DNA of 64,000 bases from Escherichia coli O127:H6 str. E2348/69 (GTDB taxonomy: Bacteria > Pseudomonadota > Gammaproteobacteria > Enterobacterales > Enterobacteriaceae). This document shows positions 58,901 to 64,000 of this stretch, piece by piece. Position numbers: made by a program. The stretch is taken from the NCBI RefSeq assembly GCF_000026545.1, contig NC_011601.1; one strand, 5' to 3'. Positions within the stretch are counted from its first letter, which is position 1, and every line of letters starts with the position of its first letter.

Positions 58901-61900
58901 CGAAATAAATACATCATTAATACATATGTTGTGATGATGTATTTTTATAAATTATTTCCCACATGAATTTTAATAAATTTAATCTATTCCTTTATACGCA
59001 ATACATTTACTTTCCTCTTTTGATGATCTTAAATGTCTTATTTTTCGTAATGTGTATAACAAGGAATAGTGATGAAATTTAAAAAATGTCTTCTGCCTGT
59101 GGCAATGTTAGCGTCATTCACTCTGGCAGGATGCCAGTCAAATGCTGATGATCATGCCGCCGATGTTTATCAAACCGATCAACTGAATACCAAACAAGAA
59201 ACTAAAACCGTTAATATTATTTCCATTCTTCCCGCAAAAGTTGCCGTAGACAACGCCCAAAATAAACGGAACGCACAAGCCTTCGGCGCGCTTATTGGCG
59301 CTGTCGCTGGCGGTGTTATCGGCCACAACGTCGGGTCTGGCAGCAATTCCGGAACGACAGCAGGTGCAGTTGGCGGCGGAGCTGTTGGCGCAGCAGCGGG
59401 TTCTATGGTGAATGATAAAACCTTAGTGGAAGGTGTTTCTTTAACATATAAGGAAGGCACCAAAGTGTATACCTCCACCCAGGTGGGTAAAGAGTGCCAG
59501 TTTACGACAGGTTTAGCCGTTGTTATTACCACGACGTATAACGAAACGCGTATTCAGCCAAATACCAAATGTCCTGAAAAGAGCTAATAATCAGGAGGAG
59601 TCATGAAGAAAGTTTTTCTTTGCGCCATCTTAGCCTCCTTAAGCTATCCGGCTATCGCCTCATCATTGCAGGATCAACTCTCGGCTGTCGCAGAAGCGGA
59701 ACAGCAAGGTAAAAATGAAGAGCAAAGGCAGCATGACGAATGGGTCGCGGAGCGCAACAGGGAAATCCAGCAAGAGAAGCAACGTCGCGCAAACGCCCAG
59801 GCCGCGGCTAATAAAAGAGCGGCAACGGCAGCAGCGAATAAGAAAGCTCGTCAGGATAAACTGGACGCCGAAGCCACTGCGGACAAAAAACGCGATCAAA
59901 GTTATGAAGATGAGCTACGCAGCTTAGAGATTCAGAAACAAAAACTGGCGCTGGCGAAAGAAGAAGCCCGCGTTAAGCGCGAAAACGAATTTATCGATCA
60001 GGAACTGAAGCACAAAGCTGCGCAAACCGATGTGGTGCAATCTGAAGCTGACGCAAACAGGAATATGACTGAAGGCGGTCGCGATCTGATGAAAAGCGTG
60101 GGCAAAGCAGAAGAGAATAAATCAGATAGCTGGTTTAACTAAACGATGTTAGTAACTTCAAGTCTATAATTCTTTAGGATAAAAAACCCTCTGTAGTAAC
60201 AGAGGGTTTTGTTCATTCATAGTGCAGGGTCAAATCATTCCCACTCAATTATTTACTAAACTCATAACTAATTGACTGAAAACAACTTTTAAAACAATGA
60301 AATTTTTCATACCGTTTTATATACCGTCACCGGAAATCAGTACCATGAAAAATGCCATGTCACCGGGTCAGCGAATCGTACTGCTTTTCACAGACTCGTC
60401 CGGCTTCTGCGGCCCGGTCAGCGTACTCTGCCAGCTGTCGGTTTCGCTCGAGAGATTTGCTGAGCACGTCGGCAAGCAAAACTCCGGTATCTGCGGCTGA
60501 CGCCCCAGTGCCGACAGTGGAGTTATACTGCCTGAGCTGCTCACGGATGGCAACGAGCTGTTGCTGCAACCTGCCAGCGCGAGCGGCAGCATCAAGAGCA
60601 TCATTGCGCGCCTTGTCGATCCTCTGCTGCGCTTCACGTTCATTGGTAGCTTTCTCCTGTTCATCGTGATTACGGGCTTTATCATCAGCCTGTTTCTGGT
60701 CTTCCTGCGCCTGCGCATACCCGGCATAGTACTGGCGGTCACCGTGGACATTCCAGGCAGCCACGCCGCTGATGACAAGAGCAGCAAGCATCGACACTAT
60801 AAGCAACTGTTTCCAGTACGCTTTGATGAATGCCCAGATCATAACAGTGCCTTACGGGCAGCGGCGTAACGTGCTCGCCGGTCGTCGATACCGTTCTGGC
60901 CACCGTTGATAATCTGCGTGACGCGCACCAGGTCTCCCGTGTACTTCATGCAGCCTTTACTGGCGAAAAACCACGCCGCGCTGCGGGCCGCGTATTCATC
61001 CTGCGACAGCAGTTCAGGCTGAGCGACCAGATCAACCTTCAGACCATTACCGCAATCCCGGTAGTTGTTCAGACCAGTGATCTGGATAAGTCCACGACCG
61101 CGATAATTCCATCCATCACCCGGGCCGTTGTTACCCATGCGCTTGCTGTACACCAGATTGGCGATCGCGCGCTGGCGCTCCAGAGGAAGAGACTTCTCAT
61201 ATGTTTTCCTGCCGAGTGCGTTGGCCTGGTCTGGAGTGATGCGCCCGGCACGGATAAACCCAGACAGCCCGTTAACGCTGTAGTTGAAGTTTTCCTGTAA
61301 CCTGGTAAATCCTCCGGACTCATGCCCGACCTGCGCGATAAACATCGCCTGGTCATCTGGCTTGGTAATGCCAAACTCATTCATAGCAGCAGTGATATGT
61401 TGGTACCAGCGTGCGGCCAGTTGCTCAGTGATACCGGCTGCACGCCGGAACTGGTTAATGTCCATGTTGAGACCTCGATATTTTGAATATCTGCACGACG
61501 TTACCGCGCGTCTTCAGGACGGCGGCAAGCATGACAGCATTGATGATGACCTCTGATAAATCAGCGGCCATTGGTGTGTGATACCAGATTGCATATGCGG
61601 CGCGGACGGGGATGCTGGCTGACGCCACGATAAGGAAGTAGGCTATCCACCCACCCCACCGGCGGTGTTGCGATCCATTACGCCGGAAGGTTCCGACGCG
61701 GATTGCTATCGCAGAACAGATAACCGCATTGGCGACGAGTAAAATCAGCTCATGAGTTGTCATCGTCTTTTCTCCCCGGGATTAAATCGCGTGGATTGTC
61801 GGAGCGGTGATAGAGCCAGATACCAATACGTACTGCGACGATTGCCGACACGAACGCGCCAGCAGAGAAGACGATCCCTTTCTCAAAAGAGTCCTGCGTG

Positions 61901-64000
61901 ATAGTTGGGATCAGGCTTGCTACGCCGATAAGAATTGAGGCAGTTGGTTTGTAGAATAGAAGCCCGCAGAGGAAGCTGAGCATCGACAGGAGAACCCGGC
62001 GGCGAATTGGATACTCAACGGCCGAGGTAATAAATATTACCGCGCCTGATAAAGCACCAAGCGCCACCTCTGGTGGAACTCCTGCGATCACTGCAGCCAG
62101 AGAACCCATACTAAGCCACTGATTTAAAGACTCACTGGTTAGCTGGGCTGACATGGTGACCACCGTTTACTGTGCATAAAGACCCCCATTAGTTGGTGAT
62201 CACATCATACACAATAAACCATATATGGTTTAAATAAACTATGACACTCTTGGCGAGTTTCTACACATTATTTGTGGATAAATCTAACAAAATGAAAAAA
62301 ATGCACAGAAAAGTTATGATTACTACAAGATTGTTTTCGGGTAAATTGGCATGAAAAAAACGATATCAATTTCTTTGTTTATCATCATAGCTTGCACGTT
62401 AGCAGGAACAGCGTCTGAGGATGTTGCAAAAGAAAAACAGTACGTTAGTGTTAATGTCCAGAAAGCAGACATAAAAATTCAGTACAAATATTCACTACTT
62501 GAAGACCGGGTAATTGAGCTTAATAGAACTGGTCTTAACAAAATATTTTCATTTTCAAGGCTTTACAAAAATTTTTCTTGGAAGTATACAGATTTTCCCA
62601 GTGGCAGACTGGATGGGTTAACGACAGTTCAAACATTCGACACGGACATCATTGGACCAATTATGGTCAGCGCAGAAAGTAATGAAGATGGTGATGATCC
62701 AATAGCTGAGTTCACAGGTGGCTGGCATGGGTTTAATGGGAACCAGAGTGGCTCTCCTACAGCCAGGCATGTTTCTCTTCAGGTATGGGTAGATGGGAAG
62801 ATGGTCAATGATACATTTAAGGGGTATACAAATGATTTAGTGATAGAAACCACGTCTAACATACAGGGCTTTAACACCAAAAAGAAAGATGGTTCTGGTA
62901 GAGAGATTATTCAACAGAAAGTAAAAATGAAATTTAATGAAGGACGTGCAGATGTGCATATCAAAATGGTTCCCCTTGAAAAGGTGAGGATACACACTTA
63001 CTACGGACTACAAACTGCACTTTCCCAACTGTATGCTAATAGTTCAATTCGTTATGAATCAGGTGACTCTCAAGAATGGAAAGACACCTCCAGCGGACCA
63101 AATGATAGTGGCCCTAAGGGTAAATATCCAAATGTTTACCGCATGACTGCAAAGAACAAACATAATGATGAAGTTGTGGTATGGTTAGACACTAAATACG
63201 GATTAGGGAAAAGATTAAATGTGAGTGATAAGTATCCTTCTGCTTTCTTTGTTGGATATAAAAGTTACTTCAATTTAATAAATGGTATTCCTTTAATTAT
63301 TTCTACAGGACAATCGGCGGAAGTTCACGGAGGCTTAGAGTGGATAAGATCAAATTAAACTACAGTGCACTTAATGGAATATAGTTGAACTATTTATAGA
63401 CCAGCCATATCAATTAAATTTTAACAAACTGAGAATTAATAAGATTAAAATATGATATTGTCATTACAGTATTTAAGAGGGATAGCGGCGATACTGGTAG
63501 TTCTTTACCATTATCGCGGTGAGTTAAATGCATCATATGCACAAAAAGGACTTGGGGATCTTCTTTTTAGCAATGGGTATATAGGTGTAGATTTATTTTT
63601 TATGGTTAGCGGGTTTGTTATCATGCTATCAACAGAAAAAGATAAATCATCTTTATCGTTTGCCATTAAAAGAATCTTTAGGCTATATCCAGTATATATA
63701 GTTTGTCTTATTTTATGCACATATCTCCTATCAAAGCCAATAGATTTAAGCTTCTATAAGTCGTTGTTTTTTATACCATTATACATGAACTCACAAGCGC
63801 CATGGTTTGGGTATTCACTGATATATACTGCATGGACTTTAATGTATGAGATTATATTTTACTTTATTTTTTCATTTTCAATGATGGCATCATGGAGATA
63901 TCGCGGGTTAATTTGCTCGGCTGTTCTTGTGGCGCTACCTTTTTTAATCGGATATTATTATAATAATAGCATTTCATTAAGTGGATATGACGCTGTAATA

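Follow-up and report, generated by a model that had tools for sequence, protein, structure and literature searches.

The DNA examined was a window of 64,000 nucleotides (nt) from the chromosome of Escherichia coli O127:H6 str. E2348/69 (NCBI RefSeq assembly GCF_000026545.1, contig NC_011601.1), and the subject of this account is a group of phage-type lysis genes lying near its right-hand end, directly after yfgI. In a listing of the open reading frames (ORFs) between 57 and 64 kb, the conserved E. coli genes pdeF/yfgF, yfgG, yfgH and yfgI were found to the left of this cassette. The cassette itself consists of five lysis genes on the minus strand (60360-62154), all intact and all giving matches far above chance. 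In order of transcription, with product lengths in amino acids (aa) and the best PHROG profile for each, they are:

61750-62154, minus strand: gp23-like membrane protein with three transmembrane segments, 134 aa (PHROG holin phrog_198, E 4.2e-40; hydrophobic segments)
61455-61763, minus strand: holin, 102 aa, like epsilon15 gp24 (phrog_217, E 1.4e-33; two strong hydrophobic segments)
60839-61465, minus strand: GH19 endolysin, signal-less and cytoplasmic, 208 aa (phrog_181, E 1.2e-91)
60360-60842, minus strand: Rz-type i-spanin, 160 aa, DUF2514 (phrog_312, E 1.6e-56)
60368-60643, minus strand: Rz1-type o-spanin lipoprotein, 91 aa (phrog_11621, E 1.7e-39; lipobox LALAGC)

The gp23-like gene begins with the ATG at 62154, as in RefSeq, and the same 405-nt gene was found in the annotated genomes of phages epsilon15 and phiV10; its product is probably a second holin or an antiholin. 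The initial annotation had extended the cassette to 62163; its genes stand, while the GTG start at that position was only a mechanical ORF start. The counterparts of the 102-aa protein in epsilon15 and phiV10 carry the annotation "holin". Hydropathy analysis of the endolysin gave no hydrophobic window, the N-terminus included, and located a single N-terminal transmembrane segment in Rz (residues 14-32), a protein equal in length and position to epsilon15 gp26 and phiV10 p30. Rz1 is encoded wholly inside Rz in the +1 frame, and an embedded gene of identical length (276 nt) is annotated in both phages. Successive cassette genes overlap by 14, 11 and 4 nt, which is consistent with translational coupling, and all five have the lengths of their epsilon15 equivalents to within one codon. 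On these features the cassette conforms to the lambda paradigm, with one or more multi-transmembrane holins, a soluble endolysin without signal or signal-anchor-release sequence, and an i-spanin with an embedded o-spanin lipoprotein. The overlapping minus-strand cassette first recognized from the DNA alone (a holin-like pair, a signal-less endolysin, an i-spanin and an embedded o-spanin candidate) was thus borne out by profile matches, hydropathy and the lipobox. Its placement about 150 bp from the yfgI terminator was also correct: 217 nt separate the stop codons of Rz and yfgI, and the terminator hairpin is approximately 150 nt away from the former.

Together with its flank (60232-62228), the cassette shows 91-92% DNA identity to Salmonella phages SPN1S, SPN9TCW, SPC32H and epsilon15, and approximately 82% to phiV10. 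The five lysis genes of epsilon15 (gp23-gp24-gp25-Rz/Rz1, beside attP and int; 91% DNA identity) are alike in order, overlaps and lengths. The E2348/69 endolysin is approximately 96% identical to that of SPN1S (E 3.5e-135), the structure of which has been solved (PDB 4OK7) and has a GH19 lysozyme-like fold; eight substitutions among 207 aligned residues separate the two, none of functional note.

The DNA between yfgI and the cassette was examined for the end of an integrated element. Two features were located:

60183-60211, no strand assigned: host bidirectional terminator hairpin AAAAACCCTCTGTAGTAACAGAGGGTTTT, between yfgI and the original guaA 3' end, outside the prophage
60234-60249, no strand assigned: att core on the yfgI side, the 16-bp sequence ATCATTCCCACTCAAT, which duplicates the last guaA codons and stop

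For the DNA past the window, a 44.8-kb E2348/69 locus (L001) was used, to which window 59000-64000 is 100% identical and in which each coordinate equals the window coordinate minus 58999. Within it the exact 16-bp repeat ATCATTCCCACTCAAT occurs only twice, at L001 1235 and at L001 41532 (the guaA 3' end), 40,297 bp apart, and its reverse complement encodes the terminal residues of GuaA (...IEWE-stop). The published attP/attB core of phiV10, epsilon15 and vB_EcoP_ZX5 is the 17-bp sequence attgagtgggaatgatt (PMC9782041); the guaA-side copy agrees with it at 16 of 17 positions and the yfgI-side copy at all 17. The common att core (16/17 bases) and integration at guaA are shared with epsilon15, and the attP core (16/17 bases) and guaA 3'-end integration with phiV10 and vB_EcoP_ZX5, E. 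coli Uetakeviruses of the same architecture. When the empty site was rebuilt in silico by joining the host flanks, it proved to be unbroken (identity up to 99.9%) in 4567 of the 5426 complete E. coli genomes. The comparison of the yfgI-guaA interval among related genomes that had been proposed at the outset therefore gave a clear answer: since the empty site is widespread, yfgI-terminator-guaA is the ancestral order, and the prophage starts at 60250. The sequences point to integration at the guaA 3' end by way of attgagtgggaatgatt, with direct repeats at both ends.

A side observation concerns the attP arm beside int (L001 41460-41486), which carries AAAAACCCTCTGTAAAAACAGAGGGTT, a 25/27 near-copy of the host yfgI-guaA terminator hairpin. 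Once the prophage is integrated, guaA thus again has a terminator much like the one it lost. The near-copy suggests a host origin of the attP region, by some past capture.

Past position 64000 the record annotation gives the rest of an acyltransferase gene, an 895-aa tailspike, large virion proteins and a T7-gp14-like core protein. These are followed by an epsilon15-type gp10 capsid staple, a cement protein, the major capsid protein, a protease, the portal and the large and small terminases, and then by early genes, a replication P gene, DnaT-like genes, a helix-turn-helix repressor, RecE/RecT-like genes and an AlpA-like excisionase-type regulator. The int-proximal end holds a PerC-family activator, an MT-A70 methylase and a tyrosine integrase that adjoins guaA. 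The portal, major capsid protein, tail proteins, tailspike, terminases, integrase and repressor matched PHROG profiles, mostly end to end, and every key gene checked was of full length. A 25-kb structural block has 92-95% DNA identity to phages 65FD, PAT1 and SPN1S, and over its entire length the prophage is collinear with 65FD, the exceptions being a variable moron slot and some of the early genes. Gene order and high nucleotide identity to members of the genus indicate that the element belongs to Uetakevirus, and it appears to hold a complete set of virion, packaging, replication, immunity and integration genes, three small early pseudogenes apart. The integrase, structural genes and att repeat that the initial annotation had suggested looking for beyond 64000 were accordingly all present, the repeat at the 3' end of guaA.

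The large terminase is short (493 aa versus 816 aa in 65FD) and was considered as a sign of decay. This was rejected: 65FD carries a 321-aa insertion, on either side of which the E2348/69 protein aligns contiguously. In the product of the 65FD gene (L016 16741-19191, compared with L001 26852-28333 in E2348/69) the insertion comprises residues 86-406; it may be an intein or a homing-endonuclease insertion. Another gene of the element, at L001 38164-38463 on the plus strand, encodes the PerC-family regulator and is conserved as epsilon15 gp31 and phiV10 p34. PerC/Pch homologues are able to activate the locus of enterocyte effacement (LEE) in enteropathogenic E. coli (EPEC), and cross-talk of the prophage with virulence regulation is therefore possible. 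Literature searches for an official name of the guaA prophage of E2348/69 returned nothing.

The feature that had first drawn attention, a lysis cassette with no structural genes between it and the core chromosome, was observed correctly and follows from the position of attP in this phage genus. In epsilon15 and phiV10 the order is tailspike (minus strand), conversion genes (plus strand), gp23-holin-endolysin-Rz/Rz1 (minus strand), the attP region with Int and IHF sites, and int (minus strand). As attP lies between Rz and int, integration necessarily sets Rz against host DNA (yfgI) and int against guaA. The junction of yfgI with the cassette is found also in enterotoxigenic E. coli (ETEC) H10407, in O26, in O157:H7 and in many other strains; the cassette was present in approximately 427 of the 5426 E. 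coli genomes at a coverage of at least 80%. The related guaA prophage of ETEC H10407 has the IS66-family element ISCro1 in its tailspike region (L013 9790-14794), directly after the same lysis cassette, and this copy of the prophage is probably defective.

Divergent to the cassette, and outside the lysis module, two genes begin within the window:

62351-63358, plus strand: 335-aa signal-peptide protein of an unannotated family, first gene of the variable moron slot
63452-64000, plus strand: 5' part of the gene for a 357-aa AT3-family acyltransferase (Pfam Acyl_transf_3, E 1.4e-34), the gene ending at window-equivalent 64525

The content of this slot in E2348/69 and in related elements is:

epsilon15: alpha-polymerase inhibitor and O-antigen polymerase (gp21/gp22)
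phiV10: oac
phage 65FD: 640-aa O-polysaccharide acetyltransferase
O26 strain RM10386: gtrA and truncated gtrB
E2348/69: 335-aa protein and 357-aa Acyl_transf_3 protein

Epsilon15 thus has the same divergent slot between cassette and tailspike, holding O-antigen conversion genes, and differs from E2348/69 in which genes these are: a polymerase inhibitor and a polymerase in place of an exported protein and an AT3 acyltransferase. Its tailspike C-terminal domain is likewise unlike that of E2348/69, where the host of the prophage is E. coli O127:H6. In phiV10 the O-acetyltransferase gene oac occupies the position corresponding to the E2348/69 AT3 gene, the two proteins being only approximately 25% identical, and the 335-aa gene is absent.

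It had been proposed that the cassette was repurposed for the release of the 335-aa protein, as a domesticated type 10 (holin/endolysin-dependent) secretion system resembling ChiWXYZ or TtsA. In favor of this, the cassette and the 335-aa gene adjoin each other and are divergent. Type 10 secretion systems descend from phage lysis cassettes, and spanins are kept in some of them (PMC13284979). The known examples (Serratia ChiWXYZ; Salmonella TtsA and ChiH/ChiP) combine, as the E2348/69 cassette does, a phage-derived holin and a peptidoglycan hydrolase with or without spanins (PMC13284979). Those loci, however, are stand-alone, co-encode their cargo and are governed by host regulators such as ChiR or PhoP (PMC13284979), whereas the E2348/69 cassette is the terminal module of a complete, att-bounded prophage of 40.3 kb with full-length genes and its own int. 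It is also near-identical to the lysis genes of plaque-forming phages, as the 91-92% DNA identity to SPN1S and epsilon15 indicates. The 335-aa protein, moreover, has a Sec signal peptide of its own. Nor is GH19 known to be the hydrolase type of TtsA or ChiX.

The distribution of the two loci argues against the secretion proposal as well. Homologues of the 335-aa gene were found in just 9 of the 5426 E. coli genomes, three of which are assemblies of E2348/69. A cassette lies beside the 335-aa gene in only three of the approximately 427 cassette-bearing genomes, all of them E2348/69; the cassette occurs without that gene in approximately 424 other E. coli genomes and in epsilon15, phiV10 and 65FD. 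Three of the six other E. coli genomes with a homologue were read, along with two loci in draft assemblies, and in each the homologue lies in a P22-like prophage, between intS and the tailspike in E. coli, with no lysis cassette near it. Given the genomic context and this lack of co-occurrence, we give the proposal of a secretion system hardly any credence. The initial annotation had itself named what would overturn the proposal, namely structural and integrase genes just past 64000 with the 335-aa gene as a phage moron, and this is what was found.

The analysis thus showed what the cassette is, that it is intact, where it lies within an att-bounded Uetakevirus prophage and that it has no linkage to the proposed cargo. 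We consider the cassette, with a probability of roughly 93%, to be the lysis module of a Uetakevirus prophage, an epsilon15-like podovirus that is resident in the chromosome and apparently complete. By homology and the lambda paradigm, the phage repressor would hold the lysis genes silent in the lysogen. In ZX5, overexpression of the repressor took away more than 99.9% of the transcripts for holin and endolysin (PMC9782041), which by analogy would support such repression here. After induction the holin or holins would build up in the inner membrane and then trigger, the cytoplasmic GH19 endolysin would gain access to the peptidoglycan and cleave it, and the Rz/Rz1 spanin complex would disrupt the outer membrane, freeing the virions. 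The 335-aa and AT3 genes belong to a different unit, a serotype module that is linked to the receptor-binding domain of the tailspike and has been exchanged horizontally; they are probably active in the lysogen, where they would modify the O-antigen.

Several observations weigh against the reading of a functional lysis module in a complete prophage. RefSeq marks as pseudogenes three small ORFs of the early region (L001 29480-30965, truncated) and one tRNA-Gly (L001 26058-26170, plus strand, between portal-proximal genes and the large terminase); given these, inducibility is not guaranteed. A literature search returned no experimental induction data for the guaA prophage of E2348/69. When 60000-64000 was scanned for promoter and terminator consensus sequences, sites, promoter-like ones included, were no more numerous than in shuffled sequence, and no promoter was identified for the cassette. 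Of the divergent promoter said to drive a secreted protein and an acyltransferase, the divergent genes were accordingly confirmed and the promoter was not. Finally, in these phages the moron on the opposite strand separates the tailspike operon from the lysis genes, which bears on how late transcription would reach the cassette.

Some of these points also favor a defective (cryptic) prophage remnant, in which the cassette was kept for something other than virion release, for example stress-induced autolysis, or is dead cargo. Many E. coli prophages are defective, the annotated pseudogenes and pseudo-tRNA would suit a remnant, and the ETEC H10407 relative has its IS66 insertion in the tailspike region. 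Set against this, the element is as long as phages of the genus (40.3 kb versus 38.7-41.3 kb), is collinear with 65FD with an intact large terminase, and retains a portal, major capsid protein, tail proteins, tailspike, integrase and repressor that match PHROG profiles; the five lysis genes keep epsilon15 lengths to within one codon, and both att cores are intact. We therefore regard a remnant as improbable, if somewhat less so than a secretion system. The initial annotation had also offered a decayed prophage continuing past 64000. The remainder does lie beyond the window, but an element of 40,297 bp that is collinear with isolated phages and has full-length key genes does not appear decayed.

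The neighboring module was compared with its counterparts in P22-like prophages. In these the order is integrase (argW/intS in E. coli, thrS-adjacent in Citrobacter), the 335-aa gene, an AT3 gene or gtrABC, and the tailspike. The AT3 protein of E2348/69 has 95% aa identity to that of a P22-like argW/intS prophage in which a 335-aa homologue adjoins it. The tailspike of E2348/69 is a chimera, with an N-terminus (1-234) of Uetakevirus type that has 75% identity to phiV10 and a remainder (229-895) that has 95% aa identity to a P22-like prophage tailspike. The shared AT3 and tailspike stretch corresponds to window 63441-64000 and continues to L001 4442-8243. At the DNA level, homology to P22-like prophages starts 10 nt before the ATG of the 335-aa gene and spans that gene; it also takes in the AT3 gene and runs into the 3' end of the tailspike gene. 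The shared receptor-binding domain of the tailspike, AT3 gene and 335-aa gene together make up a serotype-specific module swapped between epsilon15-like and P22-like podovirus lineages. Its genetic independence from the lysis cassette further contradicts the idea of a cargo.

The 335-aa gene and the acyltransferase gene occupy the variable slot beside the tailspike in which relatives have O-antigen-modifying genes. The acyltransferase belongs to a recognized family of O-antigen-modifying enzymes and is a putative O-antigen O-acetyltransferase. In the O127 unit, O-acetyl groups are reported on L-fucose and have so far been credited to WbiO (PMC7685785). As that residue bears O-acetyl, a role of the module in O127 modification is plausible.

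The 335-aa protein has a predicted N-terminal signal peptide. Its IIAC motif resembles a lipobox, and a lipoprotein was therefore considered and rejected, the cysteine not being conserved among homologues (P0016 has Y); export by Sec and SPase I thus seems likelier. Searches of Pfam, PHROGs, NCBIfam and PADLOC gave zero matches. A homology search returned 48 relatives, none of them named and only one with a Pfam domain on record, from enterobacteria and, at approximately 30% identity, from Firmicutes. Invariant residues of the family include D99, FTGGxH (121-126), Y218-G219, K304 and Y306. Firmicute homologues of greater length lack a signal peptide and resemble tail fibres at the N-terminus; the gene context of the Firmicute homologues was examined and was uninformative. 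In enterobacterial prophages the gene is always first in the O-antigen-modification slot beside the tailspike, before an AT3 acyltransferase or gtrABC.

An AlphaFold2 model of the protein was confident and all-beta (pLDDT 88.9, pTM 0.86). Its best matches among viral models were internal domains of approximately 1180-aa Pseudomonas phage tail proteins (TM-score 0.77, E 1e-22), followed by other tail-fibre proteins. As modelled, the fold is galactose-mutarotase-like and glycoside-hydrolase-like and resembles phage tail-fibre glycan domains. By tblastn the same domain was found in DDSR119 gp23, the gene for which comes after TipJ-type tail genes and has a GDSL esterase domain at its end. A transfer of catalytic residues from GH174 would be unreliable at 6-8% identity. 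From the sequence and the modelled fold we infer that the protein may be a phage domain for receptor binding or glycan processing, copied as an independent exported protein and acting on O-antigen in the lysogen. A more specific suggestion, which we offer tentatively and consider rather doubtful, is that it is a new lysogenic-conversion or superinfection-exclusion factor, periplasmic and derived from a receptor-binding domain, which would bind or trim O-antigen alongside acetylation or glucosylation.

The cassette belongs to an element of a known type in a reference strain, and for that reason its identification matters little in itself. Exact boundaries are now given for the guaA prophage of E2348/69. 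For window-based scans the locus carries a caution, in that lysis genes abutting core DNA can be the attP-proximal end of a prophage whose body falls outside the window. Of the items here, the 335-aa family alone merits follow-up, and the module to which it belongs may influence the structure of the O127 antigen as well as phage susceptibility and serotyping in this reference EPEC strain.

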